A stretch of DNA of 64,000 nucleotides from a virus: the UHGV virus genome UHGV-1351772; one strand, written 5' to 3'. Shown one piece after another: positions 51-61,272 of this stretch (positions are counted from its first letter, which is position 1; each line of letters starts with the position of its first letter). The notes beneath the pieces were generated by a model. It was not told the DNA's origin and did no database searches. It worked only from the letters and a program-made list of their open reading frames with translations. The translations under genes and the position numbers were made by a program.

Positions 51-3000
51 ATGAAACGCCTACAGTTGGCGAAGTATGGCTTTGGAAATTTGTCGTCTAT
101 TTCTAACTCGGCAATAGCGGGAGAAACAAGCGGTCCGTTAGCTGATCTGTTTCGACTAATGCACGATTTGGGACTAGTTAACCCGCTACGTCGCGAAACC
201 TTAGCATTAGACGATCGTTCTGCGGAATCTCTTTCTGCGGCGGCGAAGTTCGATCGTAAAGCTTACCTTAGTATCACAGAAGTTATTCCGACGTTACTGT
301 CCGAGATTAACAAATCTATTCGTCGTGGGTATGGCGAACACCACGATCAGGTTTATGACCTGACCACGCGCGGTATGGTGGATCGCAAAGTTATTGGTAA
401 TCGTGTACGTAAGGCCGTTGCTAATGACGATCAGCGCAAACGTTTACAGACGTACATCAACGACACTGTCGACTTTATCGATAAAGATAAAACGCTCGAT
501 AGGAAAACACGTCAAGCGTTAGCGGACTACATCGAGTCTCGTGCCTCGGAAGGGAAAGCGTTCGATGTAGGGTCTTTATTGAAAGACCCGATGCACATGT
601 ATCGATACATGAACGCAAACGCTGTGGAAGCGATTCAGGGTGTTTTAGAAGCCCGTTCTGCGGAACTGGTTGGCGGACACCATGAACTGAGTAATGCGAT
701 TTCAAACAAAATCGCCGCTATCCAGTCAACGATTCGTGCACGTCAAGACACGGTTGATGCTGCGTCTGTGATTTACGGCGAGAACGCACTTCGTGATTCC
801 GGTATTTTTAAATACGATGCGAAGAAAGACATTTTCGAGGTCGATAAGGACATTAACGATCCCTATACGTTATTTAATGACCTGTCGATGGGTAAGACCC
901 GCTCTGGACGTTCGTTAACCCGTGAGCAAGAGATTCAGCGTAAATTGCAAAACGGTTCTGCGCTGGGTGATTACTTGCGACGGATGGGTGCAGGCGCAGA
1001 GCCGAGCTTTGAAGACAAAGAACTGTCCAATGTACGTGGCGGTGGAAAAGGAGGTCGTGGTCGCGGTTTAAGCGCACGCCAACTCGCTGCGGTACTTTAT
1101 GGAGAGAAATCCACTAACTTTGTTGAACTGTTAAGCAGTCGTCCAGACACGAACGCCGGGTTGGAACAGCAATTCGACCGTTTGATTGATGCTGTACGTA
1201 AACAGCCCGAATCTAGCACAGTGCAAGATATCCTCAAACACGTTAAGAACATGGATGAGGAAGGTATTCTCCTAGCCAGTTTAGGCGGTAGTCGTGATGA
1301 CGGTGACGAATCTGAAAGTTCGAGTGACTCGGGTCGTAAACGTCGTCGTAAACGCAAACGTATTGTGCTAGGCGAGACAGGCTTGTTACGCCGTTGGGCT
1401 GGGGTGCTTTGGGATACCGGTTCAGGTGTAGGGCGGTTTGGTAAGAATCTGTTCCTACGTGGGAAAGATCGTCTGCAGGCTTTAGGTGGTTTTATCCGTG
1501 GGAAATTCTCAGGCGGCTCCTCCGAAGGACCCGGTGTATTTAGCCGACTGAAAGGGTTAGTAACAGGTACTCTATCGACAGGTTGGAATTCTGCTGTAGC
1601 TTTCGGTAAAGGCGTTTTAGGTGTTCGTGATATTTACGATGAACGTGGCAACGTCGTATTACAAGGAAGTCGTTTAGAAGCTGGGGAATATTACCAGGCT
1701 GACCCGAAAACTGAGAAGCTGATTCAACTTAAAACCCTCGACGATATTAAACTGGGACGTGATATTGTCGATGAAGCGGGTAATTTAATCTTAGCTGCTG
1801 CTGATTTGGCTGCCGCAGGTAAACTGCGTTTCTACAAAGGTGGTAAAGTTCAAGCGCTTTTCCAGTACATTTCTGGGAAAGCAGGAACGGCGGTAAACAA
1901 AGCTGTGACTTTACCGAAGAAACTTTTAGGCTTCATTTCACCTAAAGCGGCTTCGTTGTTCGAGAAAGCACGTGAGTGGCTAAATGAGGTTCCAGAGGGC
2001 GCAGAGAAAACCCGTTTACAAAGCATGATTTCCCGTGTAACGGGAATGCCAGCGCGTTTGTGGAACAATGCAAAACGCGGGTTTGAGAAGCTCAAAGAGT
2101 TGGCTTCTGATAACCCTCTGACACGTTGGTGGCAGAACCGTAAGGAAGGGGGTTCTGGTGGTGGGTTTAGTGTGTTCTCATGGTCGAACGGCCGTAAAAC
2201 TAACCACATCTTAATCCGTATCTACAAACTCCTTAACCGGAGATTGCCAGGTGAACCAGAAGATGATACCTGGACAGAACAGATGGAGCGGAATACGGGA
2301 GCCAGTTCAGTTAAAGGATTATTCCAACGTGCTAAAGACATACGCGATGGGTTCCGTGAACATTTTCAGGGGTTCCGGGATTGGCGCGGTCGGATGCGTG
2401 ACAGAATGTCCCGTTATCGCGGTGCGGTAGGCGATCGTCTTTCTCGTTGGGGCGGTACCGCACGTGGTTGGTTTGATCGTTTCCGTGGCCGTGCAAGCGA
2501 TATGGTCGATACTTTCCGCGATCCGCGTTACGATATCGGCACACGTTATCGAATGGAGAGTCGTTTAGCAGGACGCGATGACGATGTTGCTGAGTTTTAT
2601 CGTCAACACATCTACGCAAGAGGTAAGGTGTCTAAAACACGTATCATCGATGCGGCAAAAGAAGACTTAGACACCGTAACGGATAGCGCTGGACGTGTGA
2701 TTAATAAAGGGAAACAGAAAGCCCGTAGCGTTGGGTCAGCTTTACTGGAACGCCTGAACCGAATGGTTAATCTTCAGGAAATGTCATGGTTTAACACCAT
2801 GCGTGATTCTGCGGAAAAAGCAGGTGCTTCGGATGGTTTGTTAAGAACTATGTTCAGTAAGTTCGGCCAACGCAATAAACCGCCTGCCAGTGATGAAAAA
2901 CGTGATTACTTCCAGTTCTTCCGACGCCGTCGTCGTTCTAAGGAAGAGGAAAAGGCTAAGAAAGAAGCCGAGAAGAAAGGTGGTAAGCGCGGGGTGATGG

Positions 3001-6000
3001 ATTTCCTTAAAGGACTGCCGTTGGTAGGACCGATTGTGAGTATTTTAGGCACAGTAGGTTCAATCTTAGGTAAAGTCGCGAAATGGGGAATCTTTAAGCC
3101 GGTTGGGTTTGCAGGCAAAGCGTTGTGGAACGTTGGTAAGTTTGCTGTGACTCGTTTGGCTGTCCCTGCGGTGAGTGCTGTCGCGACGGCAGCATCTGCA
3201 GTGGTAACTGCGGTTGGCTGGCCGATTATCGGTTTGGTCGCTGCAGGCGCTGCGCTATCTTGGTTTGCATATAAAACTGCAACCCGTGTGAATGCTCAGT
3301 ATTTGGATAACATGCGATTGGCACAGTACGGATTTAGAGATCACGATGAGTGGTCTTCCGACGATGGCGCAAAAGCACGTTATTTAGAAGACAACTTGAA
3401 ACCGTACATCTCTTATACAGAGAATGGCCAAGCACAGTTGCGTGGTTTGTCCGGTGACGACGTGAAGAAACTGGCCGAAGGGTTTGGTACTAACGTAGAA
3501 GACAAAGGCGAAATGCTGGCGTTTAGTGCGTTTATGCTACAACGTTTTGTGCCGATCTATTTACGTTGGATTACGGCACTGAAATCCATGGATAATGATA
3601 TCGCGTTAGCAGATGTCGGTAATCCTGCGAAAGTGTCGAAGGCAGACATGTTGAATATCTTCAACAAAATGAAGATGTCGAAAGATGCGCCTGCATTCCG
3701 TGCATTAGAAGATCCCCGCAAGGTTAACCAAGGTTGGTTCTCTAAAGCGTGGGATTTCGTAACGTTTACCCCGGCCGAGTTTTTGTCAGGCGAAGAAGTC
3801 GTTGAAGCGCAAGAACGCGTGCTTCGTTCGATTAACATGCGTCGTGATGAAAAACGTAAGGATGTAAATGCTACAGGCGGTGTGGCCGAAGGACACAAAG
3901 TTGCTTCTGTGGCAGAATCGACCCAAGCGTTGGCTCAAGCGGATGCGGAACGCAACAAAGAAGTTGCGAAAGTCGAAGGTTGGGAAGACGGCACCGAACA
4001 AGTTCAGGTTCAAGTCGACTGGAGAAGCTTACCTAAAGAAACCGATCTCCGTGATTTGGAGTCCGTAAGGTTGAAAGCTTATGGTGCGGTGAGTATTACT
4101 CAAACAACCCGTAACCTCTATACGCTCTTGGAACGTCAAGTGTTGCAAGACACCGATGTGAAAAGCTGTACGTATAAAGGCGACTGGAAACGTGCGATTG
4201 CGGTGATTGCGCCTGACGCCATTGGTGGGCCAAAAGAAGATCGGTACAAGAACTGGTTCTATAACCGCTTCTTACCTGTCTTCATGACGTACGTGGTTGG
4301 GGTGAAACGTTATGTCCCTGCTGCCGATCCGATGGACCTACGCGTTACGGGTGGGTTCTTGTATGAAATCGCACTGATGATGCGTGGTGCATACAACCTG
4401 AAAGGGGGTATTCGTCAGTCAGTGTGGGAGGTACCGTTTAACCCGTTAGGGGGAGACGCTAACACCGACGCCGGTTCAGTTGCAACGGAGTTAGAGAACC
4501 TGAAAGAACTGTCTAAGGAAGCTGATTTGGCAGTACGTAAAACGCTGCGTGCTACGCCTTCTGCGGGTTTCCGTGTGAACTGGCAGCGAAAAGATCGCGC
4601 GACTCAGATGTTCTTGACCGACGATGAGAAGGAGCAACCGTCTCGACCACAGATGAACACCTCCTCCTCTTATCGTGACCTATTGCAACCAGCGGCAAAC
4701 GACGGTGGGAATTACGGCACACCAAACGATTTGGCCGGTGCTTACGGTCAGATGGGAGCTAAGAATTACGCTGCATTTACTACCGGTAACTTCGGCGTGA
4801 AACTTGGCGATATGCAAGACGGTGACTATAAAACGTTAGCGGCTAAGTATCCAATTTCAACGTTGGGTGACGGATTGAAGCCTAACTTGAATGCGGTTGC
4901 AGCACTGATTACAGACGTAGCGAAGATGATGGGTGTTCCTCCAGCGTTAGCACTGGGAATGGCACAAGCAGAATCTGGGCTTAGATACGGTATCAAAGCT
5001 AAAGGAAGTTCTGCGGCTGGCTTGTTCCAGTTCATCAACGATACCTGGGGTGCGCAGATGAAAGCTTATGCGAGACGTTATGGTATCCCGCAAACCAACC
5101 AGTATGACCCGTGGGCGAATGCTCTGCTTGGCGTCCGTCATATTCGTGATAATATCGAGAAAGCCAGAAAGGATTTAGGTGGTATCGATCCTCCAGGTGC
5201 AGCTGTTTACCTCTACCACTTCTTAGGACAAGGTGGCGGTAAGAAATTCCTGCAAGAATGGAAGCGTGATCCGAACGGGCCATCGTCGCGTGGTGCGTCG
5301 GCCGATCAAATCGCGGCAAACAGCACAATTTTCTACAAGAATGGAAAATTGCGTAGTTTGGATGAAGTGCTCAACATCATGGGTGGTAAGATTGGTGCTG
5401 TAGGAACAAACGCGATCGCGGCTAACCAGGCATCGCTGAAAGACTTGACGACAGGCGTAACACCAATGCCGTCTTCCCCGGCTATCGCTGCAGGCGCTGC
5501 TAACGATCCGTCTATCACAGGCCCGGCAGATAACCTGCCAGCCGCGAACGAGGCGAATCGCGACTCCGCTTTAGCAGACAAAGGCGCGATGGGTGCTGAA
5601 GATATTAAAGCTGCAACTGGTGGTGGTCCGGCTGTGCCGAGTCCTGGCGGCGATGTCACGCCGAGCGATGCGTCAGTTGTTGTAGAGACGGTGGGTCAAA
5701 ATGCACGTGCTGATGGCCTGGCCGAAGAAGAGGTTGCTAAAGTAAAAGAAGGTGCTAGACAGCAGATGGAGAAATCGGCCCGTCCTGCACCAACGGTAAC
5801 TTCCGATGCTCAGAGCGGTTCTACAGTGAACAGTGGTGATCCGATCAGTGTACAACAGCTGGCGGTTGCAAAAGAGTCTGCAGGCTATCTGAAAGAGATT
5901 GTAACAATTCTTCGCCAGCGGCCACAGGCTATGCAAAACGGTCCGGCTAACCCGGCGTCAACCGCTCCGGGTTCGGCGTCACGTAACGTGTCAATAACTC

Positions 6001-6041
6001 AACCCGCGCCGCAACTCGACGTTAGTCGTAAATCAGCGTAA
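51..6041 (+). CDS. Giant virion-associated protein with lytic transglycosylase (SLT) domain; possibly 5'-partial at window edge
   Basis: 1996-aa ORF; same frame has no stop between position 3 and the ATG at 51, so the gene may start upstream of the window. SLT motif MAQAESGL...SSAAGLFQF...YLYHFLGQGG at about nt 4926-5290. Hydrophobic segment cluster (GLPLVGPIVSILG...AVGWPIIGLVAAGAALSWFAY), basic stretch SGRKRRRKRKR, Ala/Pro/Gly-rich C-terminus. Intrinsic terminator immediately downstream. Confidence 0.7.
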   Translation: MKRLQLAKYGFGNLSSISNSAIAGETSGPLADLFRLMHDLGLVNPLRRETLALDDRSAESLSAAAKFDRKAYLSITEVIPTLLSEINKSIRRGYGEHHDQVYDLTTRGMVDRKVIGNRVRKAVANDDQRKRLQTYINDTVDFIDKDKTLDRKTRQALADYIESRASEGKAFDVGSLLKDPMHMYRYMNANAVEAIQGVLEARSAELVGGHHELSNAISNKIAAIQSTIRARQDTVDAASVIYGENALRDSGIFKYDAKKDIFEVDKDINDPYTLFNDLSMGKTRSGRSLTREQEIQRKLQNGSALGDYLRRMGAGAEPSFEDKELSNVRGGGKGGRGRGLSARQLAAVLYGEKSTNFVELLSSRPDTNAGLEQQFDRLIDAVRKQPESSTVQDILKHVKNMDEEGILLASLGGSRDDGDESESSSDSGRKRRRKRKRIVLGETGLLRRWAGVLWDTGSGVGRFGKNLFLRGKDRLQALGGFIRGKFSGGSSEGPGVFSRLKGLVTGTLSTGWNSAVAFGKGVLGVRDIYDERGNVVLQGSRLEAGEYYQADPKTEKLIQLKTLDDIKLGRDIVDEAGNLILAAADLAAAGKLRFYKGGKVQALFQYISGKAGTAVNKAVTLPKKLLGFISPKAASLFEKAREWLNEVPEGAEKTRLQSMISRVTGMPARLWNNAKRGFEKLKELASDNPLTRWWQNRKEGGSGGGFSVFSWSNGRKTNHILIRIYKLLNRRLPGEPEDDTWTEQMERNTGASSVKGLFQRAKDIRDGFREHFQGFRDWRGRMRDRMSRYRGAVGDRLSRWGGTARGWFDRFRGRASDMVDTFRDPRYDIGTRYRMESRLAGRDDDVAEFYRQHIYARGKVSKTRIIDAAKEDLDTVTDSAGRVINKGKQKARSVGSALLERLNRMVNLQEMSWFNTMRDSAEKAGASDGLLRTMFSKFGQRNKPPASDEKRDYFQFFRRRRRSKEEEKAKKEAEKKGGKRGVMDFLKGLPLVGPIVSILGTVGSILGKVAKWGIFKPVGFAGKALWNVGKFAVTRLAVPAVSAVATAASAVVTAVGWPIIGLVAAGAALSWFAYKTATRVNAQYLDNMRLAQYGFRDHDEWSSDDGAKARYLEDNLKPYISYTENGQAQLRGLSGDDVKKLAEGFGTNVEDKGEMLAFSAFMLQRFVPIYLRWITALKSMDNDIALADVGNPAKVSKADMLNIFNKMKMSKDAPAFRALEDPRKVNQGWFSKAWDFVTFTPAEFLSGEEVVEAQERVLRSINMRRDEKRKDVNATGGVAEGHKVASVAESTQALAQADAERNKEVAKVEGWEDGTEQVQVQVDWRSLPKETDLRDLESVRLKAYGAVSITQTTRNLYTLLERQVLQDTDVKSCTYKGDWKRAIAVIAPDAIGGPKEDRYKNWFYNRFLPVFMTYVVGVKRYVPAADPMDLRVTGGFLYEIALMMRGAYNLKGGIRQSVWEVPFNPLGGDANTDAGSVATELENLKELSKEADLAVRKTLRATPSAGFRVNWQRKDRATQMFLTDDEKEQPSRPQMNTSSSYRDLLQPAANDGGNYGTPNDLAGAYGQMGAKNYAAFTTGNFGVKLGDMQDGDYKTLAAKYPISTLGDGLKPNLNAVAALITDVAKMMGVPPALALGMAQAESGLRYGIKAKGSSAAGLFQFINDTWGAQMKAYARRYGIPQTNQYDPWANALLGVRHIRDNIEKARKDLGGIDPPGAAVYLYHFLGQGGGKKFLQEWKRDPNGPSSRGASADQIAANSTIFYKNGKLRSLDEVLNIMGGKIGAVGTNAIAANQASLKDLTTGVTPMPSSPAIAAGAANDPSITGPADNLPAANEANRDSALADKGAMGAEDIKAATGGGPAVPSPGGDVTPSDASVVVETVGQNARADGLAEEEVAKVKEGARQQMEKSARPAPTVTSDAQSGSTVNSGDPISVQQLAVAKESAGYLKEIVTILRQRPQAMQNGPANPASTAPGSASRNVSITQPAPQLDVSRKSA

Positions 6042-8861: not shown

Positions 8862-8902
8862 TCTACCTACCTCCGAAAGGAGGTAGGTACTTTTATTTAT
8901 TT
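8862..8902. terminator. Bidirectional intrinsic terminator between convergent genes
   Basis: Stem TACCTACCTCC / GGAGGTAGGTA with GAAA loop, A-run upstream and T-run (TTTTATTTATTT) downstream. Confidence 0.7.
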
Positions 8903-10962: not shown

Positions 10963-11997
10963 TTAGACAGCTATGGGAGCTTTAATTGTGTCGTGCGATT
11001 GATATCCAACCAATTCGAAGTCTTCGAATTTGTAATCGAAGATGGAATCAGGTTTACGTTTGATAACCAGTTTAGGTAGCGGGTAAGGTTCGCGAGTAAG
11101 TTGAAGTTTTGCCTGCTCCAGATGGTTAGAGTAAAGATGAACATCTACGCCACTATAAACCAACTCGTCTGGAACCATATTGAGTTGTTGAGCAATCATG
11201 TGAGTTAACAACGCGTAAGAAGCGACGTTAAACGGTGCGCCAAGTAGGTAATCGTTGCTCCGCATCATGTAAAAACACGAAAGTTTACGACGAGGGATAC
11301 CTTCACGATCTAAGGTTTCATGAAGTCGTTCTTCGTTATCGATATCTTCGTGGTTAATAAGCGGTGCGTTCGCAAACTTTTCCGGTTCGTTTACTTCGTA
11401 CCAATCCAGTCGTTCAAGCAACGTCATTTCTGTTGTGTAAAATTGGAAATAGTTGTGACATGGATTGAGTGCCATATCGTCCAGGTCACCTACATTCCAG
11501 GCACTAACGATAATACGGCGGGAGTCAGGGTCTTCACGAAGTTGTTGGATAACTTTACTGATCTGGTCATGTGCTTTTTCATAAACCAAATACGTCGTAC
11601 TATCTTCCTTCATATTCCCGATATACTTGTAACCCCGCTGCATTAGTTGTTGTGTACGTCTTACGTCATGACACTCCACAACTTTACAGTCGCGCCATTC
11701 CCGCCACTGGTGTCCGTAGACAGGACCTAAATTCCCTTCTTCATTCGCCCAAGCATCCCAGATTTTTACCCCGTTCTCTTGCAGGTACTTCACGTTAGTG
11801 TCACCGTTTAAGAACCACAATAGTTCATGAATGATACTTTTCAGGTGAACCTTTTTCGTAGTAACTAATGGGAAACCTTCTTTCAGGTCAAAACGTAGTT
11901 GACGACCAAATACAGAAAGTGTCCCTACACCTGTGCGGTCTTTCTTGACAACACCGTTATCCAGAATGTCTTGCATTAACGCTAAATACTGTTTCAT
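10963..11997 (-). CDS. thyA: Thymidylate synthase family enzyme (ThyA-like) with two internal insertions
   Basis: 344 aa; collinear with E. coli ThyA from N-terminus ([15 protein letters not shown]...DRTG.GTLS.FG) to C-terminus ([24 protein letters not shown]...IKAPIAV); catalytic PCH and [10 protein letters not shown] motifs present; about 35 and 45 extra residues after WREW and after FQFY. Confidence 0.85.
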
Positions 11998-12314
11998 TTG
12001 TTATTATTCCCCATTCGTTTCGTTAAAATGTCTAAATTACGTTGCGCTTGCTCAGGACTAAAAATAATGTTTTCCTGGCTATACGTTACATGGAAATGTT
12101 TTTTGTTAACAATCTCAACCTTAAGGCCACGAACTTCGAATTGCCGTTTAGCCTCTTCAACCTTTTTTGGTGAGATTCTAAGAAGACCCGGAAATAGTTC
12201 GTCTGCAGGAACGTAGTATTTGATTTCCTTAGTTTCGGGAATTAATTCGATTCTATCTAAACTGACGCTTATAATCTCGTCAATCTTTTTCTTTATATTG
12301 TCGTTCACAGTCAT
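11994..12314 (-). CDS. Hypothetical protein
   Basis: 106-aa ORF, 4-nt overlap with upstream gene. Confidence 0.45.
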
Positions 12315-12622
12315 TAGATTTTGTCCTTTTCGAGTTCAGTTAAAATTTCAAATAGGTCTGCGTTGGACTGCAGTACGATTTCACTGCCTTCTGCTACAAC
12401 GGTAATTGAAGGCTTCTTACCACGTAGCAAGAACTCCCAACGCATTGTTCTTACGTGGCTGTCGAGTAACTGCTTTAATTTGTGGTTAACTTCGACTTCC
12501 AATTTGCCCAGTAACTGAGGTGTAATAGCTTCGCCTGAGTTTTTGTTATAAAGTGTACGCACTAAAGAACGTAAAGAATAACCAATGCACTGCGAAATTG
12601 CCCAACCCGAATAGTTTTCCAT
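12314..12622 (-). CDS. Hypothetical protein
   Basis: 102-aa ORF in tightly packed leftward operon. Confidence 0.45.
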   Translation of the reverse strand: MENYSGWAISQCIGYSLRSLVRTLYNKNSGEAITPQLLGKLEVEVNHKLKQLLDSHVRTMRWEFLLRGKKPSITVVAEGSEIVLQSNADLFEILTELEKDKI

Positions 12623-12623
12623 G

Positions 12624-13169
12624 TTAATCCTTCAAAATGTCTTTAAGCTTTAGTTTTGTATAGAACGGAGAACTGCTTAGTTCTTCTGTCCAACTTATAC
12701 GTCCGTTCTGTAGAACCCGGTCGAAGATTAGGCCGTTCATCTTTACAATTCTAGCCAACTGATAAAAGAGCGTCGTGAGGTGTAGTCGACGCTCCATTTG
12801 TGCGCGTGCGGTACAACTACGTACCGCTTTGATAGCAAGTACCGCTTCCGGCATCAACGTCACCGCGATTGTCTCAGGATGTTCGTTTTTCCATTTCTTA
12901 ATGGCTAGTAGTCTGTGTAACGATTTTTCAAGGGGACGTAAATCCCCGTTATTCATCACGTAAACCAAAGCAGCAAGATCCCACAAGGCAATACCTACTG
13001 CTTTAGCAACAAACAGCCCGTCGTGTGTTGTCGTGGATTCACAGACTTTGCCAATACTTCCGTAAACACGTGCAGTCCATGCGTCTGTCTGTTCGCCAGG
13101 TTTTATACCCGCGTTATCCAGAAAGTGTTTAAACGCATTAACGTGTTCAGTTAACTGTATTTGTTTCAT
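12624..13169 (-). CDS. Hypothetical protein
   Basis: 181-aa ORF. Confidence 0.45.
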   Translation of the reverse strand: MKQIQLTEHVNAFKHFLDNAGIKPGEQTDAWTARVYGSIGKVCESTTTHDGLFVAKAVGIALWDLAALVYVMNNGDLRPLEKSLHRLLAIKKWKNEHPETIAVTLMPEAVLAIKAVRSCTARAQMERRLHLTTLFYQLARIVKMNGLIFDRVLQNGRISWTEELSSSPFYTKLKLKDILKD

Positions 13170-13183
13170 TTCCGATACCCGAT

Positions 13184-13648
13184 TTAGTCACGAGACTTTA
13201 TTTTAAGGTACGCAACCGCAGCTCCCATGATTGCAATACCGGCACCCCAACCTATCTTTTCTATTACACTCATATCGTCCCATCTTTTCTCTACGTTACG
13301 TCGTTTGGCCTCTTCTGCCCGTTCTCTCCACATCGCTTCGCGTTCCAGACAGCTGGGATTTATTTCCTCTTCACAACGACGTTTCCGTTCTTCTTCCCCA
13401 ATCAGTTCTTCTAAATAGAGTCTCGTTTCTTCCACAGCTTGTTCATAGACGTCTATGTGATCAGGAAGAACTCTCCTGTGAGCGGCTTTGTTGCGAACGG
13501 AAGCAATCATGTGGAGTTTCCGTTCGTATTTTGGTTCGAGAAGATGAGCTATGCTTTTGGTCTTCCCATGAAGCCCATGACCGGTACCGCCGAGTTTTTC
13601 CACAAGTTCTTCTACAGAAATTGCAAGATCGAGAATATATCCACGCAT
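13184..13648 (-). CDS. HEPN-like (DUF4145-like) protein with C-terminal transmembrane anchor
   Basis: Start set at MRGYILDL (GGAG upstream); motif LHMIASVRNKAAHRR matches the HEPN R-x4-H signature; coiled/charged linker; C-terminal hydrophobic segment IGWGAGIAIMGAAVAYL. Confidence 0.4.
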   Translation of the reverse strand: MRGYILDLAISVEELVEKLGGTGHGLHGKTKSIAHLLEPKYERKLHMIASVRNKAAHRRVLPDHIDVYEQAVEETRLYLEELIGEEERKRRCEEEINPSCLEREAMWRERAEEAKRRNVEKRWDDMSVIEKIGWGAGIAIMGAAVAYLKIKSRD

Positions 13649-13708
13649 AATTGTTTCTCCGCTTAAACGTAGTCTTGGGAGACATAAGTTTGTTCCCAAC
13701 TGTAAAAA

Positions 13709-14077
13709 TCATTTCAACAAAACAAGATGAATTTGGTATTCGTCATCCGCAGGAGAAGAATAATCGCCAGTTACAGGTAACGTTATATCTTCCAGTAGAG
13801 CGTGGAAGGGTAATCCACGAGCAGCCTCAACAATTCGTACAAGCGGAAAACCCGTTCTTTTAATCCAATTGTAATCGACAAACATAACACCGCCAGGATT
13901 TTCCGAACCTTCCCACACACGAATTTCCACAGTCTTTCCCGAAAAGTTGGCCAGAACGGTGCGCAGTCCTAATTGCACATAACGGGGGAAGGGTACTTCA
14001 ATAACTTGTTTTGGTAAAACAAATTCAGGGAATTTAAAACCGAAACCTTTGGGTGTACTAAAAAACTGAGCTTGCAT
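13709..14077 (-). CDS. Hypothetical protein
   Basis: 122-aa ORF. Confidence 0.45.
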   Translation of the reverse strand: MQAQFFSTPKGFGFKFPEFVLPKQVIEVPFPRYVQLGLRTVLANFSGKTVEIRVWEGSENPGGVMFVDYNWIKRTGFPLVRIVEAARGLPFHALLEDITLPVTGDYSSPADDEYQIHLVLLK

Positions 14078-14094: not shown

Positions 14095-14136
14095 GTAAAA
14101 AATGAAAATACCCTACTCCTAGTCAGGAGTAGGGTA
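14095..14136 (-). terminator. Intrinsic terminator (leftward)
   Basis: Stem ACCCTACTCCT / AGGAGTAGGGT, loop AGTC; T-run on the minus strand. Confidence 0.7.
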
Positions 14137-18296: not shown

Positions 18297-18367
18297 AATT
18301 CACTCCTAAAGAATGTCTCACGTAGATAATATCTGTCTGACTTCTTTTTGAAATTGAGGTAGTAAGA

Positions 18368-20447: not shown

Positions 20448-20491
20448 GATGACTCCTTAGGTCGGGTAGGGTTTACCCTACCCGAGCCTAT

Positions 20492-21988
20492 TTATTTCTT
20501 TTTCGTCAGGAACTTCGGTTCTAGTCCATCGACAGCCATACCCAGAATGGTACGTGCAGTCAGTGTACGTTTACCACCTTTGGTTTCCTGGTCTTTAAAC
20601 ATCCAGTATTCTACCGTGTTGTCCAGAATTTCATTCCAGTCCCACTTCTCGTCAATCATTTTGTAAATCTCACCCATGCTGAGATGATACTTCATTTCAA
20701 GACGATGGTAGTTGTTTTGCATATAAGCAATTGCCGCCGTGATCTCTAAAGCGCGACGTAAGCGTGCGTTATCAGAAATCATATCACGGATTGTCGTGCG
20801 TTGGAATTTCACACCAGGTAGAATGTCCAGTTCTTTGATGGAGCCGCCACTACCGCTTGACGTAAAACCAAAGTCTGACTTCTTCAGCGTGTCACTTAAA
20901 TAGTGCCACAGGCTCAGGTGATATAACAGACCCATTTCCTGAGAGAAGATCATCTGGAATTTCACACCAGTGTGACCACCCTTCGCACGATACTGAGTAA
21001 AGGTGATAATCTTCAAGTCGTTTACCGAAGCATTCATCGCTTTAGAACGTGACGTCGGATAAAGTTCTTCGTTAACACCGGTCTGCGCGTTATAGCTCTG
21101 GTCTTTTTTCAGCTCCCCTGATTTCGTCGCGACGATAAAAGAGTTTGTTAAAAAGCTAAGCTGACGGCGAGGAATACCTGCGAATTTTAAATCGTCGTTG
21201 GCATCGTCAAGAATTTTCGCATTTGCTTTTTGTGCCTGACGGCCACCTGCCATCGCTTTCCCAGAGTCATCGGCCATCTGTGCCACGAAGCCCATGTAAA
21301 AACCACCACGTGCAAACGCAGACGGCCAGCGGCTCATCATATTCGATTTTTGCAGCGCATCGTGGGCGTTCAGGATGTTCTGATCAGAATCCCCAATATC
21401 CGTTTTTGCGTGCTTGTCTTCCAGCGAACTGGAATGCCACTCTGACAGGGAGTCGATAGAATAAAGCCAGGGGTCCAGGATTTCTTTTAACTTACGACGA
21501 ACCGGATCGGGGAACGGTGTTACGCGGGTTTTACCAGACATATACTGTTTGAAGCGTTTTTCAACTTCATCACGAATATAATCACTGTAATACTGTTCCC
21601 CAGGCATTACGTCAGAACCGACCAGGTTATAACGACCTTCGTGGATAAGTTCCAGTACGGATGTTCCGTCGTCGATACCGTTGGCGTTCATGGCAGAGAT
21701 GTACCCAGTTTCTAAACGATCGAGGGCAGCTGACACTTCTGTATCGTACTTAGAACCCCACTCTGCTTTATAACGTTGCAGGATTTGGAAAATACAGAAA
21801 TCTAACAAGGTGGATTTAAAAGTGTTACCGCGCCCTGCGAAACCCATGATGTGGGCAAAACCACCGTTAAGGTAGTACAAACCATCTTCACCTTTTTCGT
21901 AGTTACCTAAGGCATGATCCATGATGGTGTAAACGTTAAAACGTGGACGAATTACTTCACCGATAACTTGCTTAGTTGGGCCTGCCAT
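20492..21988 (-). CDS. Hypothetical protein with degenerate P-loop-like motif
   Basis: 498 aa; GGAG ribosome-binding site; N-terminal GFAGRGNTFKST resembles but does not match a Walker A box. Confidence 0.5.
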   Translation of the reverse strand: MAGPTKQVIGEVIRPRFNVYTIMDHALGNYEKGEDGLYYLNGGFAHIMGFAGRGNTFKSTLLDFCIFQILQRYKAEWGSKYDTEVSAALDRLETGYISAMNANGIDDGTSVLELIHEGRYNLVGSDVMPGEQYYSDYIRDEVEKRFKQYMSGKTRVTPFPDPVRRKLKEILDPWLYSIDSLSEWHSSSLEDKHAKTDIGDSDQNILNAHDALQKSNMMSRWPSAFARGGFYMGFVAQMADDSGKAMAGGRQAQKANAKILDDANDDLKFAGIPRRQLSFLTNSFIVATKSGELKKDQSYNAQTGVNEELYPTSRSKAMNASVNDLKIITFTQYRAKGGHTGVKFQMIFSQEMGLLYHLSLWHYLSDTLKKSDFGFTSSGSGGSIKELDILPGVKFQRTTIRDMISDNARLRRALEITAAIAYMQNNYHRLEMKYHLSMGEIYKMIDEKWDWNEILDNTVEYWMFKDQETKGGKRTLTARTILGMAVDGLEPKFLTKKK

Positions 21989-22341: not shown

Positions 22342-22371
22342 TTGGGTGAACTGTAAAAAGACTTTACTATG
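22342..22371 (+). promoter_or_regulatory. Candidate sigma70-like promoter for rightward island gene
   Basis: TTGGGT - 18 nt - TACTAT about 30 nt upstream of the ATG at 22402; a perfect TATAAT also lies at about 22383-22388. Confidence 0.25.
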
Positions 22372-27412: not shown

Positions 27413-27448
27413 TTTAATAACTCCAATGGTGTTACACCTGGATAATAT

Positions 27449-28117
27449 CTATCTAAGAATATTTTTAGCGAAAAAAGGATCGACTGTAAACTCCCTCACC
27501 TGTGAGTCATAACCCGAATGTATCTGATCGCTACTGAGCAAATACCCGTCTAAATCGTGTGGAAGAATCCAAGAATCGCCTTGTTTAAAAATACCATAAT
27601 CTGTTGTTCCAGAGGAAAAAACGATTTCCTCTGGAGACGAATAGATGTGGCGTAAGGCAAGATCTGACGGCTTTAACACGATTAATCGAACGGGATGTTG
27701 ACTGACTGCCTCTTTAATAAACTGTTCACGATTAAACCAAATTATTTTTTCGGGGTAAGTTTCGAATTCAGCCCATGTCCGCGTGATAACTAATTTGGAA
27801 ATCTTTCTCAATTCTTCAGAATGCTCTGCGTAGCCGATACACTCCTTGCGCACTTCATGATTTTCTACCGATGCTGTGAATTTTTGGAATAGGTGTTGTT
27901 GGAAAAAGCCGTTCTCCGGGATATCACAACCCGCGTTGTATAGTGCAATGATCTCCCACAACAACGAAAGAGAAAACACAAATGCTAACTTTTCCACAAC
28001 TTCCCAATCTTCGGAGTAAGGGGCTTTAAAGCCCCAATACTGCCGTGCGTTATACATAAAGTGAGTTTGTAAAAACCGAGGGGCTTTTGACAAGACCTCA
28101 CTATAAACGATCAGCAT
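27449..28117 (-). CDS. Hypothetical protein
   Basis: 222-aa ORF. Confidence 0.45.
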   Translation of the reverse strand: MLIVYSEVLSKAPRFLQTHFMYNARQYWGFKAPYSEDWEVVEKLAFVFSLSLLWEIIALYNAGCDIPENGFFQQHLFQKFTASVENHEVRKECIGYAEHSEELRKISKLVITRTWAEFETYPEKIIWFNREQFIKEAVSQHPVRLIVLKPSDLALRHIYSSPEEIVFSSGTTDYGIFKQGDSWILPHDLDGYLLSSDQIHSGYDSQVREFTVDPFFAKNILR

Positions 28118-34039: not shown

Positions 34040-34054
34040 TTTAATACTCCTAAG

Positions 34055-34092
34055 GTGGAAAAAGAATTAACCCTACTCCCGGAGGAGTAGGG
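34055..34092 (-). terminator. Intrinsic terminator (leftward)
   Basis: Stem CCCTACTCC / GGAGTAGGG, loop CGGA; T-run on the minus strand. Confidence 0.7.
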
Positions 34093-34100
34093 GATTTAAA

Positions 34101-35566: not shown

Positions 35567-35587
35567 AACTCTGCTCCTTTAGGGAAT

Positions 35588-35628
35588 GAAAATAAAAGTA
35601 CCCCTTACTCCACAAAGGGTAAGGGGTA
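35588..35628 (-). terminator. Intrinsic terminator (leftward)
   Basis: Stem CCCCTTAC(C) / GGTAAGGGG; T-run on the minus strand. Confidence 0.6.
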
Positions 35629-35632
35629 GGGA

Positions 35633-36864: not shown

Positions 36865-36937
36865 TTCCGTATTCCGTAAGACGAAATGACGGCGCGGACA
36901 GCTAATACTCCTTTGTTGTGTGCCCTAATGATAATAT

Positions 36938-37498
36938 CTATTTAAAAGAGTTTGGAATTAATGACTCTGCTTCTTGATACAACTTATCAGGTAAGTATAA
37001 CGTGTAGCGTTGCCTCCTCGGTTCAAGTTTTTTGTAAAGCCACAAAAAGATTTCTTGTCTTTCCCAGGAATCTAACCACCCGTTTGCCATTCCAAGTGGA
37101 GGGATAGCAACGCTGGTATCCAGATCCTCAGCACAATCCGCCAGTGCGGTAATGCCCGCAGTAACATAAGAAACCTGGGACTTTAAGCGCCAATGGGTTT
37201 TCGTGGGGAGCAAGATACACTTTTCGTCAGAGTAAACGTAAACGTTTCCAATCTTAATTTCGTTTTCACGACACCGCTTACGATAATTCTGGTAAAGGTT
37301 GGGGTAGCGTTCACGACACGCGAGTGCAATGCCGCGACCCATCGCTCCTACGCAGTTAATGGTAACGACTTTATAGTCTTCGGGCGCATTAAAAAGATCG
37401 TTATCAATTTCAGATTCTTTACGTACCGTTAACATAACGAAACGCCCGGAGTTGATGTGTAGTATTAAAACGTGTACCGCCGATTGATAGCTCGACAA
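36938..37498 (-). CDS. Macro domain protein (TARG1/OARD1-like, Macro_2 type)
   Basis: DLFNAPEDYKVVTINCVGAMGRGIALACRERYP and VAIPPLGMANGWLD fit the TARG1-like macro-domain pattern; ORF-finder start is TTG, a more likely ATG is at about 37435. Confidence 0.5.
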   Translation of the reverse strand: MSSYQSAVHVLILHINSGRFVMLTVRKESEIDNDLFNAPEDYKVVTINCVGAMGRGIALACRERYPNLYQNYRKRCRENEIKIGNVYVYSDEKCILLPTKTHWRLKSQVSYVTAGITALADCAEDLDTSVAIPPLGMANGWLDSWERQEIFLWLYKKLEPRRQRYTLYLPDKLYQEAESLIPNSFK

Positions 37499-52660: not shown

Positions 52661-55600
52661 ATGGCTGTCGTCCTAGACCCACACTTCAAAAAACCGGGGA
52701 ATAAAATAACCGGTGAAGCGGTCGCCGTCATTGGTACGAAATACCGAATGTTGGTACCTGCCCACGCCCCTTTTTTCACCACATCCCTGGTGGTCAAGAG
52801 CGGCGGCAAAATACTGACCTTAGGCGACGATTACGTTATTACACACCCGTACGAGACCGGTATGTTGCGCACAGCCTATCTCATTCACGGGATGATTTGG
52901 ATTGTTAATGACAAATACAAATCGAATTTTACGGTAGATTACCACGCCGTTGGTTGTGGTCAGGCTACCCAACAACAGATTACCGCAGAACGCGAACTCA
53001 ATAAAGATAAATACCCGTCTGCGTGTCAGTGGGACACCGTCATCGGGGACGTTTACTTTCCGCCGGTCGATATTCAGTTCGATTGGGAGAATTGGAAAGG
53101 TGAACTGGAATTAATGCAGGCTATTGCTGGATTAGGCGATTCGTTAGGGGAAGTCGTGAGTCGGCTTAACCCCATCGCACGCAATACCCTGGATTTAGAA
53201 TACCGTGCTAATAGCAAGGTTATCACTTCCGAGCAGTATGCCGTATACGACAATAAAGGTGGCTTCACCTACAACACTGCCCGTCATCGTTATAGCTTGA
53301 GTTATAAAACTGCAACCTTTAACGACTACGCCCTGTCAGTGAAACACAGAATTCCTGCTATTCTGCCAGACATGACGAAATTGAATCCAAACGAACAGAT
53401 CGATTGGATGCTCTGTTATGCTAACGGCGGTGCAAGTATTCTACGGCTGCAGCTAAAACAGCGCAAAATCTCACTGGTCTTAACGGTCGCTATTGGTAGC
53501 GGTTCAACAAACTACGATTATACGTTAATCAACGGTTTAACTGACGATGAGTTAAAAAACGATATCGATTTTAGTGTAACCCGTCAACCCGGAAACGGTG
53601 TTTACGTCATCGTAGTAAAAACAAATAAACAGACCATGGATTACACATTCAACGTCGATACACCGCCTGATGAGTTCTCGGCAGGGTATTCGAAAACGGA
53701 TGTTGCTAAATGGTTGAAGTTTAAAACGAACATTAATTTAAACTGGTATGCGGCCGAAAACGATTATATCCAAATTCGTTCTTTACCCGGCGCACCAGAA
53801 CCTGACGTCGATAACGATGTTTACCAGTTAATAGTTAAATATCATCAGTTAGTTGAGCAGCTGTATCGTAACGCGCCTGCACACGAACACGTTACACGTA
53901 AGGACAACCCGCACACCGATACGTGGGGTCCGATCCGTGCGTTAGAGCTGAATGGTATTGCGTCGGATGCCGCGTTAGCTTACGGGAAAACGAAACAACA
54001 GTTAACGGATTACGTTAATGCTAAGTACCCAACACAAGCAACGTTAACCGCACAGAAAAAATTGCTTCGTGAATCGGCGAGCAAGAACGTTAACGGCACG
54101 ATTACCACACTTCCGGGTTTTACTTCGTTCACGACGGAAGTTGATCCGGTTTCGATGTCGAAATACGTGAGTCCTTATTTTAGCGAAAGCTATGTTAGTA
54201 GTGGACACAGATATCACGGTGCGCTTCGTTACACAGGAACGAAAAACGGTTTCAGTGCTAACTTTAATGCGGTGCCTGCCAACCTGCAAGATATTGACTT
54301 TATTGTTACTGGACGTAAGACAGCATCCGGTAATGAAGCGGTCGGTAGGGTTGGTTTACGTTTCTACGAAAACCCGGGTAGTAACTCCGGTAAGTTCGTA
54401 GAGATTACTGGCCAAATCTGGGGTGGTACCCTTACTATCAGTCTGACATTGAACGGTTACGGGAGTCCGTTACCGTCAGTACGTTATATTTCTCAAGCTC
54501 CTAATCCGGCAATACCGGATGGGGATTTTACGCTACGTTTTCAACTGAAGCGTACAGGGAACGTGTTTAACGTCGTTATTACCGTAAACGGTAAAACGTA
54601 TAGCGGTCGGATTAACTTCGATAACATGGACGCTGCGTTAGAAGCATTAGAGAATCAGCACCACTTTAAATCGCTGATCAATAATGTTGCTGACGCCGTC
54701 ACTATTAGTTCGCAAAACAAAGGTAACACGGTTACCATTAAGAAAGCACCGGATGTTGTTGATGGGGTTCGCTTAGGTGCCCAGTTTGTCGTTGATCCGA
54801 AATCCATTAAGTTTATTGGCCAAGGTTCAACTGATGTTAACGTAGGAAATAACCCCGTAACGTTCCAAGCAGGTACTAACCAGCTTATGTTGTATCCTGA
54901 TGATCGTGGGTTACAGTGGCGTGGTAAAAAACTCTTAGACCCCACCACCGTGGCCCCGTATCTACCAGGCAATACCGCAGGTGGCACAGGTTTATTCTAC
55001 GCAAGTTCGACAACAACGGTTACGATCACCGGTAGCGGGATAAAAGCCTCGCCGTTCGTAGCGACCTTTATTCTTCCTACCGCGACCGATACAACAGCTC
55101 TGGCAGCTTGGCAGTTGACCGATGAGTTCGGTACCGCTGAAAACCTTGCAGCAACGCCAGCACTGATTGAAAAACTCGATGCGGAGTTCACCGGTAAGTT
55201 AGTTGCAGTTAAATCGTACATTAACGACATGCAACTTACCAGCTCGGTTACTATCGATAAGATTACCTTTGGTTTAGGTAATGTTGCGAATACGCCCGAT
55301 GCCGATTTACCGATTTCTACAGCACAGCGTGCGGAGTTAGATAAATACTCGCCTAAAGTTCACCAACACCCGTTTACCGCTTTTGGTACTGGGAACGCAA
55401 CCACAGCGCAACGTGGTCTGATTAAATTTGGTCTGGATGTGGATGATGCGACTTTAGCACTCGATGGGAGTGTGGTAATGGCGCAGACTTCTCAGATTGA
55501 AAAATTGGAGCGCGCTGTCAGCGGTGTTGACTCGGAGGCACGTCTTGACATTATACGTTTTGGTGAGTCTGGTAACGACTTAATAGACCTTACGGTCAAA

Positions 55601-56983
55601 GACAAAATTCTGGTCACGCTTCCAGCTTCAACGTATTTTATCGGTGGTGAAACATACGACGTTCCGTTGATGACGATTAACGTCAGTGAACGTTTTCCGA
55701 AATTGAATACAGAAATCTACGCAGGGATTTTTGTTGACATCGTTGACAACAAAGCGAAGTATATTGTCCACGACAGCTACAGTCAGGCTGAAACGGATAC
55801 CATGACGCGTGTAGGGTTGATTGGTGTTAACGACATTTCTGAGGTGTTCGTTACGGAGATGCGTAATGTCACACGGTTGGGTGATTTCCGTGAACTGAAA
55901 GATCATAAAGCCGATGACAACGCACACATTCAGCGCTCCGCGTCACGTGCAGCGCTTGGGTTAGCTAACTTAACGGTAGGCGCGCCTTGCTGGGCTTCTG
56001 GACTCCAGGCAGTAGTACGCGGTGAAGCAGATTGGCGTTATGTTGCCGGTGGGCAGTATAAAGCTTTAGACGGGGTGAAATACGACCAGCTCGCATCCAA
56101 GTGGATTTTTGACGCGAAAGGGGTAAGCGATAACCTTCACGGGTTTATCCACAACATGTTCCCAGCTTTTAAGAACGCAGGAATGCGAGTCAGTTGGGAA
56201 ACAGAAAGCAACGCAAAAACCGGCACGGTGTTAGAAACTGTTTTAGGTTGTTGGAAAAACACCGACGGCGAGTTTATGCGGTTGTCGTTACTTATCACTC
56301 GTGGTTATCGTTTAACTGACAGCAACGGTGAATATTGTTACGCAGGGTTCGGTTTGAACTTCGGTAGCGGGAAATCGGTAGTGTTAGGTTTCACACCAAC
56401 GAAGCATGTTACGCCTGCACCGTGGAATACGTTACAACCTGACGTAACGTTTACCCACACCCGTGCTGCAAATAACGCAATAACGTTTAACGCAACATTG
56501 ACCTTAGCGGGCACTACGTATACCATCGTGGTGTTTTTATCTGCGACTGATAAATACGTAAGTTGCACGGCAGCAGGGGGAGCTACGCAGAAAATCCCTC
56601 TAACTGACCGTTTAACTGGGTTCAATATCGCACCTATCGTTAACGATCCGTATACCCCTATTTACTACGGTTTAGGGGGACTTTATGAGGATGAAGTTCG
56701 TGCCAACATCCGTTCTACGGCAGATAGCGCAACCGCGAATAAAGTCTATGGTACGTTGTTAGACTATATTAGCAACTATTCCTCATTAAATCGTGTGCGC
56801 GTTATGGAATTGACCGGTGTCAGTTCAGACCCCGAAACGCTTAATGCGTTAGTGGCAACTGAATTTAATAACAACCTGGCGGATTACGCTGCGTTACCGA
56901 TACCTCCTTATCTTAACAAGGAGCGCGTAATGTCGTTTATCGACACCAACAATAAAGTGCAGGCGGTAATCATTCGCGATTAA
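52661..56983 (+). CDS. Tail fibre protein
   Basis: 1440 aa; AGGAG ribosome-binding site; N-terminal module shared with 56994 and 61273 ORFs; fibre-repeat-like segment ATTAQRGLIKFG. Confidence 0.7.
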   Translation: MAVVLDPHFKKPGNKITGEAVAVIGTKYRMLVPAHAPFFTTSLVVKSGGKILTLGDDYVITHPYETGMLRTAYLIHGMIWIVNDKYKSNFTVDYHAVGCGQATQQQITAERELNKDKYPSACQWDTVIGDVYFPPVDIQFDWENWKGELELMQAIAGLGDSLGEVVSRLNPIARNTLDLEYRANSKVITSEQYAVYDNKGGFTYNTARHRYSLSYKTATFNDYALSVKHRIPAILPDMTKLNPNEQIDWMLCYANGGASILRLQLKQRKISLVLTVAIGSGSTNYDYTLINGLTDDELKNDIDFSVTRQPGNGVYVIVVKTNKQTMDYTFNVDTPPDEFSAGYSKTDVAKWLKFKTNINLNWYAAENDYIQIRSLPGAPEPDVDNDVYQLIVKYHQLVEQLYRNAPAHEHVTRKDNPHTDTWGPIRALELNGIASDAALAYGKTKQQLTDYVNAKYPTQATLTAQKKLLRESASKNVNGTITTLPGFTSFTTEVDPVSMSKYVSPYFSESYVSSGHRYHGALRYTGTKNGFSANFNAVPANLQDIDFIVTGRKTASGNEAVGRVGLRFYENPGSNSGKFVEITGQIWGGTLTISLTLNGYGSPLPSVRYISQAPNPAIPDGDFTLRFQLKRTGNVFNVVITVNGKTYSGRINFDNMDAALEALENQHHFKSLINNVADAVTISSQNKGNTVTIKKAPDVVDGVRLGAQFVVDPKSIKFIGQGSTDVNVGNNPVTFQAGTNQLMLYPDDRGLQWRGKKLLDPTTVAPYLPGNTAGGTGLFYASSTTTVTITGSGIKASPFVATFILPTATDTTALAAWQLTDEFGTAENLAATPALIEKLDAEFTGKLVAVKSYINDMQLTSSVTIDKITFGLGNVANTPDADLPISTAQRAELDKYSPKVHQHPFTAFGTGNATTAQRGLIKFGLDVDDATLALDGSVVMAQTSQIEKLERAVSGVDSEARLDIIRFGESGNDLIDLTVKDKILVTLPASTYFIGGETYDVPLMTINVSERFPKLNTEIYAGIFVDIVDNKAKYIVHDSYSQAETDTMTRVGLIGVNDISEVFVTEMRNVTRLGDFRELKDHKADDNAHIQRSASRAALGLANLTVGAPCWASGLQAVVRGEADWRYVAGGQYKALDGVKYDQLASKWIFDAKGVSDNLHGFIHNMFPAFKNAGMRVSWETESNAKTGTVLETVLGCWKNTDGEFMRLSLLITRGYRLTDSNGEYCYAGFGLNFGSGKSVVLGFTPTKHVTPAPWNTLQPDVTFTHTRAANNAITFNATLTLAGTTYTIVVFLSATDKYVSCTAAGGATQKIPLTDRLTGFNIAPIVNDPYTPIYYGLGGLYEDEVRANIRSTADSATANKVYGTLLDYISNYSSLNRVRVMELTGVSSDPETLNALVATEFNNNLADYAALPIPPYLNKERVMSFIDTNNKVQAVIIRD

Positions 56984-56993
56984 GGAGATTTTT

Positions 56994-61178: not shown

Positions 61179-61216
61179 GACAGACTGCCTGCGGGCAGTT
61201 GTGTGTCCGTAGGTAA

Positions 61217-61254
61217 CCCCTCCCTGTAACGGGGAGGGGTATCCATTTTATTTA
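61217..61254 (+). terminator. Intrinsic terminator (rightward)
   Basis: Stem CCCCTCCC / GGGGAGGGG, loop TGTAAC, then TATCCATTTTATTT. Confidence 0.65.
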
Positions 61255-61272
61255 AAAGTAGGAGTCTTTACG

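Follow-up and report, generated by a model that had tools for sequence, protein, structure and literature searches.

HEPN proteins of the DUF4145 type are the closest described counterparts of the gene reported here. They form single-gene conflict systems in which the HEPN domain needs oligomerisation for RNase activity (PMC13434031; bioRxiv 10.64898/2026.07.06.735840), and the DUF4145 HEPN domains of RAZR are experimentally active RNases (PMC13434031). Membrane-associated HEPN proteins were catalogued in 2013, among them a Planctomyces group in which an N-terminal HEPN domain precedes two transmembrane helices and a zinc ribbon at the C-terminus, and DUF4145 was listed for double-stranded DNA viruses (PMC3710099). 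RNA processing at the inner membrane face was proposed for such membrane HEPN proteins (PMC3710099), a proposal that applies equally here. We analysed a 64,000-nt stretch of the virus genome UHGV-1351772 (the window), in which the gene at 13184-13648 on the minus strand encodes a predicted tail-anchored HEPN protein of 154 amino acids (aa). The combination of a HEPN domain with a membrane anchor is very probable, and a membrane-tethered, DUF4145-like HEPN RNase employed in a conflict role is, at slightly better than even, the most likely explanation of the locus.

From N- to C-terminus, the protein consists of a helical domain, a charged stalk and a hydrophobic helix, and the corresponding features are as follows.

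13184-13648, minus strand: complete coding sequence of the 154-aa predicted tail-anchored HEPN protein, defined by the open reading frame and its translation, 57 homologue clusters and the ratio of non-synonymous to synonymous substitution rates (dN/dS)
13657-13660, minus strand: ribosome-binding site GGAG, read from the sequence, with the ATG 8 nt downstream
13394-13648, minus strand: HEPN (DUF4145-like) domain, residues 1-85, with predicted helices at residues 2-18, 25-32, 39-57 and 65-94
13610-13612, minus strand: E13, an upstream acidic residue invariant in a 40-sequence alignment (A4)
13478-13495, minus strand: predicted RNase active-site motif R52-N53-K54-A-A-H57 (Rx4H with Asn after Arg), invariant in alignments A1 and A4
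13265-13393, minus strand: charged helical stalk, residues 86-128, of hypervariable length in the orthologues, its helix predicted with low confidence
13271-13285, minus strand: juxtamembrane motif R-W123-D-D-M, W123 being invariant in alignments A1 and A6
13205-13255, minus strand: C-terminal hydrophobic helix, residues 132-148, Gly/Ala-rich, a predicted tail anchor by Kyte-Doolittle hydropathy

The coding sequence comprises exactly 154 codons plus a stop and begins with ATG. A longer, TTG-started reading frame reaching 13699 was rejected as the gene because all 57 homologue clusters begin with Met-Arg and the RefSeq annotation of the related record NZ_CP173450.1 uses the identical ATG. Compared with five orthologues, codons 1-84 show dN/dS values of 0.15-0.35; the gene is real and under purifying selection.

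The sequence-only reading had pointed to the string LHMIASVRNKAAHRR, residues 45-59, as fitting the R-x4-6-H signature of HEPN RNases. The motif is present and conserved, whereas the bare pattern is uninformative: Rx4-6H occurs at least once in 86% of shuffles of the protein (mean 1.75 per shuffle), and we rejected it as evidence for a HEPN domain. The stricter RNxxxH arises in 1.3% of shuffles and is found in 251 of 255 family proteins. We regard the feature as real because the residues are conserved, not because the pattern can be written. R52, N53, K54 and H57 are invariant across 22 close homologues (alignment A1), and among 40 distant domains, 22-38% identical to the window protein (alignment A4), E13, G20, G23, G25, A49, R52, N53 and H57 are all unchanged, so that the Arg and His on whose conservation the earlier proposal had been staked are fixed at both depths.

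The position of these residues is equally informative. R52-N53-x3-H57 occupies the C-terminal end of the third helix (39-57) and is followed by a loop (58-64) and the helix 65-94; by definition, the catalytic HEPN motif closes the third helix and has an Asn following its Arg, and a second conserved acidic residue is common among HEPN families (PMC3710099). The AlphaFold2 (AF2) model has a predicted local distance difference test score (pLDDT) of ~90 over residues 1-90 and forms the helical up-and-down bundle common to solved HEPN domains, with the HepT toxins 5yep and 6m6u as the best Foldseek matches (probability 0.85-0.87). The best Pfam match of the window protein is DUF4145 (PF13643), with E-values of 0.086 at full length and 0.029 for the domain alone. 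Relatives carry this connection further: P0059, which matches the phage profile at E 2.4e-16, scores exactly 23.1 bits, the DUF4145 gathering score; 6 of 80 relatives match DUF4145 at E<=1e-3 and 24 of 40 at E<=1; one is named 'DUF4145 domain-containing protein' by NCBI; and seven further HEPN Pfam models are matched by relatives, namely HEPN_Apea, RiboL-PSP-HEPN, Cthe_2314-HEPN, HepT-like, LA2681, MAE_28990 and Swt1. On the basis of fold, motif position, invariant Arg, Asn and His and these transitive profile matches, we place the N-terminal domain in the HEPN superfamily, with DUF4145 as its nearest family. The earlier assignment to a DUF4145-like HEPN domain is thus upheld by fold, motif and relatives, and not by the protein's own Pfam score, which is sub-threshold; since its relatives do match the model, we file the window protein as a DUF4145-like sister group. 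Weak matches to Pox_A32, Ppl, MdtN, YlxM and TraX were rejected as products of charged or coiled-coil composition.

Downstream of the domain, the charged region and the single C-terminal hydrophobic helix anticipated from the sequence are both present. Lys, Arg, Asp and Glu make up 59% of residues 85-128, and residues 132-148 (IGWGAGIAIMGAAVAYL) form an uncharged 17-mer with a mean Kyte-Doolittle hydropathy of 1.68, the sole hydrophobic segment of the protein, after which only six residues (KIKSRD) remain. Orthologues measure 136, 154, 175, 180, 182, 186 or 191 aa, and almost all of the differences are indels in the stalk. In the 136-aa orthologues the helix sequence differs yet stays hydrophobic (hydropathy 2.2). 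One allele, P0052, is recombinant, with residues 1-48 identical to the 175/182-aa type and the remainder identical to the 136-aa type. The predicted C-terminal hydrophobic helix is a conserved trait of the whole family.

That family is mostly bacterial. A profile built from the phage proteins retrieved at least 336 representatives at E<=1e-3 from 1.84 billion proteins searched (50% clustering). Among 255 collected relatives, 235 have the motif inside the first 70 residues and 208 have a hydrophobic 17-mer downstream of it, and 149 of the 193 relatives of 200 aa or less carry a hydrophobic segment within their last 32 residues; the median length is 137 aa. Longer relatives have two to seven predicted transmembrane segments, or added zinc ribbons, peptidoglycan-binding or Excalibur-like tails. 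Judged from these sequences, the layout of an N-terminal HEPN domain with a downstream transmembrane segment is ancestral and no phage invention. The nearest subfamily (alignment A6) shares the Met-Arg start, the charged linker, the Gly/Ala-rich helix and an invariant Trp ~10 residues ahead of it (W123 here; motif W-[SAD]-[DE]-[MK]); among its members are chromosomal genes of Pseudomonas protegens, P0253 and other metagenomic proteins, and a gene in a 71-kb IMG/VR contig that adjoins lambda-like tail genes. In species-representative genomes the wider family was found mainly in Planctomycetota, Phycisphaerae and Acinetobacter, and nearly all relatives are without a precomputed Pfam domain.

Genomic contexts vary from locus to locus, and no neighbour or partner gene is conserved across 18 bacterial and viral loci of relatives, which identifies the family as a stand-alone gene. 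In sequenced phages it is almost absent as far as these searches reach: tblastn searches of 50,697 phage records with three family members as queries were all negative, bearing out its supposed rarity there; megablast of the region found no near match in the same records; and the viral structure library BFVD gave no match with E<0.15. The 224,589-bp contig carrying the relative P0273 was considered as a jumbo phage and rejected as bacterial.

Several relatives depart from the simple layout. A homologue of 167 aa (P0058) has two tandem HEPN domain copies and no hydrophobic tail; such a covalent tandem would fit two domains building one active site. On the Acinetobacter parvus chromosome, a relative located between upp and a cold-shock gene on one side and a LysR regulator on the other (L010, 6001-6678) combines the HEPN domain with one transmembrane helix and a Cys/Asp-rich, Excalibur-like extracytoplasmic tail (DGNNDGEPCE), and a planctomycete contig (L006, 5986-7541) contains two tandem paralogues. 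Some family members therefore possess an external module, which could serve as a sensor.

Measured against the described systems, the phage protein shares with the DUF4145 systems its best Pfam match, which is also that of its relatives, and the RN-x3-H motif, and differs from them in lacking a zinc-finger or beta-rich sensor and in having a charged stalk and a predicted C-terminal membrane anchor; those systems reside in bacterial defence islands, whereas this gene resides in a lytic, persistent jumbo phage. With the bacterial membrane HEPN proteins it has in common an N-terminal, predicted cytoplasmic HEPN domain followed by transmembrane segment(s). The Planctomyces group probably overlaps the family found here: many relatives are Planctomycetota, and zinc ribbons occur in P0092 and in the neighbour gene of L003-L005. 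In contrast to these proteins, the phage version is minimal, with one helix at the extreme C-terminus and a long charged stalk, and it has no external sensor, since only six residues would be extracytoplasmic. The sequence-only reading had called a membrane-tethered copy in a phage unexpected; the architecture is less so than supposed, membrane-associated HEPN proteins having been catalogued in 2013 (PMC3710099). Literature searches returned no experimental work on tail-anchored HEPN proteins or on the membrane-associated bacterial group, and no HEPN protein described in a chimallivirus.

Ire1 and RNase L, whose KEN domains belong to the HEPN superfamily, offer a further parallel, Ire1 being anchored in the endoplasmic reticulum membrane, oligomerising in the membrane plane and cutting membrane-proximal RNAs (PMC3710099). 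The phage protein has neither a kinase domain nor a lumenal sensor, and KEN is a circularly permuted HEPN; the likeness may serve as an analogy for possible working, with no specific relationship beyond the superfamily. HepS, the HEPN tRNA nuclease of the Salmonella prophage Gifsy-1 (PDB 9oik), is a soluble, tetrameric, tail-tip-triggered protein of 218 aa from a temperate prophage, whereas the phage protein is predicted to be membrane-anchored and has no detectable sequence similarity to it. Unlike HepT/MntA (PDB 5yep, 6m6u, 7ae2), in which HepT has no membrane anchor, the locus has no adjacent nucleotidyltransferase antitoxin, and no antitoxin-like partner was found, both neighbours being without recognisable domains. 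A review (PMC12948488) mentions 'HEPN-TM', a defence system carried by phage-inducible chromosomal islands; when three family members were scanned against PADLOC-DB v2, whose coverage of HEPN-TM is uncertain, no relevant model was matched, and all enterobacterial homologues found are located on jumbo-phage contigs, none on chromosomal islands.

Csx28 is a precedent for a pore-forming protein that combines HEPN and transmembrane segments. A comparable effector, in which the HEPN domain is a sensor or oligomerisation module, the helices form a depolarising pore and RNA cleavage is secondary or absent, would be consistent with the many small residues of the transmembrane segment (GWGAGIAIMGAAVA), a composition that promotes packing between helices, and with the transmembrane segment(s) being the most constant partner of the HEPN domain, many members having two to seven. 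In Csx28, a type VI-B accessory linked to cas13b, the order of domains is reversed, with the transmembrane part N-terminal and the HEPN-like domain C-terminal, and no cas-like gene is found among the scanned neighbours. We consider a pore of this kind improbable.

The carrier is itself unusual. That the genome is a phage, as had been assumed, is confirmed by virion structural genes in the window and by other parts that match SPN3US-type jumbo Salmonella phages (genus Seoulvirus) at ~74% nucleotide identity, while proteins encoded nearby share 50-59% identity with proteins of Seoulvirus and Erwinia jumbo phages. The gene has close homologues on 220-227 kb contigs of Salmonella, Shigella, Escherichia coli and Enterobacter assemblies, on four IMG/VR contigs and on circular records deposited as plasmids, namely NZ_CP173450.1 (E. 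coli 98232, 221,873 bp) and NZ_CP134650.1 (Enterobacter ludwigii, 222,441 bp); related jumbo phages in RefSeq and PLSDB are labelled non-mobilizable 'plasmid'. Non-temperate jumbo phages that encode chimallin and persist in bacterial isolates have been described as a 'Seoul-like' cluster (bioRxiv 10.1101/2024.12.31.630880), and the window fits a ~224 kb 'Seoul-like' persistent chimallivirus distantly related to SPN3US.

All clade members examined keep the HEPN gene at the identical position. In Seoulvirus SPLA3 the flanks (a phrog_7768 homologue and ThyA) are kept and the slot between them holds an unrelated 141-aa gene, which places the HEPN gene in a plastic accessory region. The 141-aa gene was rejected as a diverged homologue, having no similarity, motif or hydrophobic helix. 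Overall, the gene is accessory and horizontally acquired in 'Seoul-like' chimalliviruses of Salmonella, E. coli, Shigella and Enterobacter isolates.

Host shutoff or counter-defence, the roles first put forward, are possible ones among several. As a host take-over RNase, the protein would degrade membrane-translated mRNAs, rRNA or tRNA, achieving host shutdown or nucleotide recycling while the phage DNA itself stays safe inside the phage nucleus. The intact catalytic residues, the retention of the gene at one position in every clade member examined and its clustering with non-structural genes of nucleotide metabolism (thyA) and recombination (UvsX-like) agree with such a role. However, the gene is absent from the closest sequenced relatives (Seoulvirus SPLA3, and all INPHARED phages by tblastn), which means that this type of infection can proceed without it; its homologues are overwhelmingly stand-alone bacterial genes; and strong shutoff would be ill-suited to phages that coexist with growing hosts (bioRxiv 10.1101/2024.12.31.630880). 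We therefore regard host take-over as unlikely.

What favours a conflict role instead is the accessory status of the gene, its acquisition from stand-alone genes of bacteria and its fast-evolving stalk, together with a logic resembling that of HepS and of RAZR and Ishtar, two DUF4145 systems that consist of a single gene. Given the intact catalytic residues, and by comparison with HEPN enzymes already characterised, the protein is predicted with reasonable probability to be an active RNase; we likewise infer its membrane insertion, topology and oligomerisation. In the proposed mechanism, the compact N-terminal HEPN domain would face the cytoplasm, with a rigid, charged helical stalk, variable in length, spacing it from the inner membrane and the single Gly/Ala-rich C-terminal helix fixing it there. 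At least two copies would meet in the membrane plane, aided by the stalk and the small-residue helix, and the paired R52/N53/H57 motifs with E13 would build a metal-independent RNase site, cutting RNA close to the cytoplasmic face of the inner membrane. In known systems, a HEPN active site requires two HEPN domains and metal-independent cleavage leaves a 2',3'-cyclic phosphate, and oligomerisation activates RNase L, Ire1 and RAZR (PMC3710099, PMC13434031).

The role would be the exclusion or abortive killing of competing phages or invaders in a contest for the persistently infected cell rather than a core replication step, and we assign it to inter-phage or invader conflict only tentatively. 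In a narrower version, the protein would be an immunity factor that enables the carrier state, a membrane RNase destroying the first transcripts of superinfecting phages or membrane-proximal RNAs of invaders. Inner-membrane anchoring would then imply its presence also in the membrane vesicle around newly injected chimallivirus DNA, resident phage transcription would be shielded within the protein nucleus, and stalk length would set the reach of the nuclease, evolving in an arms race with targets or inhibitors. This version is slightly less probable still than the pore considered above.

Several observations weigh against a membrane-tethered conflict RNase. With respect to the domain, the window protein scores 13.4 bits (full length) or 14.9 bits (isolated domain) with DUF4145, relative to a gathering threshold of 23.1; PHROG, PADLOC and NCBIfam give no match; and sequence-profile searches of the PDB yield no HEPN entry. 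The PDB profile matches that did appear (a designed coiled coil, the cyclic-nucleotide synthase EfCdnE and TRIO) have E>=0.18 and were set aside as irrelevant. With respect to the anchor, residues 95-154, which comprise stalk and helix, are modelled at low AF2 confidence, the hydrophobic helix is short and of moderate hydropathy (1.68), and its C-terminal flank (KIKSR) is more positive than the N-terminal one, so that an N-in/C-out orientation is not favoured. At positions 24 and 28 the window allele carries His and Gly in place of the consensus Arg/Lys and Glu of the family, and no trigger, inhibitor or antitoxin is evident that would keep the RNase harmless.

A chance motif in a small helical membrane protein unrelated to HEPN, for example a lysis or scaffolding factor, would agree with three observations: Rx4-6H is frequent in shuffles, the Pfam match is sub-threshold and helical bundles generate many weak structural matches. 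Set against the conservation of the motif residues, this explanation is highly improbable. The substitutions in the window allele concern a different possibility. Inactive or inhibitory copies of host defence domains are frequent in phages, and the protein might be a non-catalytic tether that binds RNA, ribosomes or nucleotide, or a decoy that forms dead heterodimers with a host HEPN nuclease; His24 and Gly28 replace consensus residues beside the conserved G-x-G-L-H-x-K loop, and many HEPN domains are non-catalytic binding modules (PMC3710099). However, HEPN families turned binding modules typically lose their catalytic residues (PMC3710099), whereas the Arg, Asn and His that define catalysis are all kept and invariant here, and no host HEPN partner was identified. 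We give a tether or decoy the same low standing as the pore.

A catalytic HEPN domain and a membrane-associated, conflict-linked setting were already known; the minimal tail-anchored form, the unmodelled family and the unusual carrier are new. If active, the membrane-tethered RNase would be the first protein to be studied from a family of tail-anchored or membrane-embedded HEPN proteins with at least 336 representatives, which PHROGs, PADLOC and NCBIfam miss and Pfam barely catches, and it would parallel, in bacteria and phages, the membrane-located RNA cleavage of Ire1. It is also a candidate for how jumbo phages that live for many generations alongside clinical Salmonella, E. coli and Shigella isolates shield their host cell from competitors or tune its physiology, a question newly raised (bioRxiv 10.1101/2024.12.31.630880). 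HEPN specialists may find little surprise in the protein, yet it offers a defined entry into a large uncharacterised family and into persistent jumbo-phage biology, and as a single 154-aa gene with two obvious point mutants (R52A and H57A) it makes the hypothesis cheap to test.

Further features concern the transcription and surroundings of the gene.

14109-14136, minus strand: strong terminator-like hairpin with a 12-bp stem and a T-run, closing the upstream unit; the unit that contains the HEPN gene begins after it
13709-14077, minus strand: 122-aa gene with no recognisable domain, the upstream neighbour, without Pfam, PHROG or PDB match
12624-13169, minus strand: 181-aa gene matching the N-terminal part of phrog_10269, the downstream neighbour
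10963-11997, minus strand: thyA (thymidylate synthase), 344 aa, aligning end to end with the 266-position Pfam profile

The leftward unit runs from the 122-aa gene through the HEPN gene to genes of 181, 102 and 106 aa and thyA; the HEPN gene is thus the second gene past the 14109-14136 hairpin and belongs to a non-structural leftward cluster with thyA. Its placement in an early operon, as first suggested, is not established. A scan for sigma-70 promoters fell below random expectation, as is to be expected of a phage that uses its own RNA polymerases; early promoters of jumbo phages with their own RNA polymerases contain AT-rich motifs of ~10 nt (PMC7598289). The sequence GATATTATC is found exactly just upstream of three leftward genes (18325-18333, 27441-27449 and 36930-36938, minus strand) and, with one mismatch allowed, has 24 matches relative to 13 expected, a number reached in none of 100 shuffles. 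It is a candidate AT-rich early-promoter element, the sole motif of this kind found, and no copy of it lies near the HEPN gene. A second sequence, TTTTTACAGTT, has exact copies at 13698-13708, which is 50 nt ahead of the start codon, and at 22349-22359, and is not enriched. Similar GC-rich hairpins with arms of the GGGTAGGG / GGTAGGTA type, each followed by a T-run, are positioned between genes at 14109-14136, 20462-20485, 8864-8889 (bidirectional), ~34040-34100 and ~35567-35632, and look like a common family of terminators.

The HEPN gene ranks first or near first in divergence within its neighbourhood. Relative to the sub-clade with the 136-aa orthologue (L029, 3569-4953), the 122-aa, HEPN and 181-aa genes are 59%, 46% and 40% identical, whereas the flanking genes are 94-95% identical; the three-gene block (12624-14077) could reflect either cassette exchange or joint fast evolution. 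In that sub-clade the 181-aa gene overlaps the HEPN stop codon (L029, 4408/4411). The 181-aa neighbour has no Pfam domain and no PDB match; together with the 102-aa gene (12314-13169, minus strand, for the pair) it matches the N- and C-terminal parts of the 299-position phrog_10269, which looks like a split gene or two genes fused in other phages. Compared with other sub-clades, the N-terminal piece of this pair is 40% and the C-terminal piece 95-99% conserved.

In Seoulvirus SPLA3 a restriction-endonuclease-like gene adjoins thyA. The ThyA of the window has ~77 residues inserted relative to typical ThyA, and the version of sub-clade L029 measures 346 aa. A UvsX-like recombinase (20492-21988), an SbcC-like protein and RNase H are encoded in the window alongside ThyA; Rfam and tRNA scans of all 64,000 nt found nothing. 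Three consecutive large genes (1440, 1394 and 492 aa; 52661-62751, plus strand) match PHROGs 7557, 8078, 7449 and 2163 and form, by these matches, a paralogous array of virion structural proteins. A 1996-aa protein (51-6041, plus strand) has a tail-fibre PHROG match over residues 655-1995 and a transglycosylase-like segment at residues 1614-1843.

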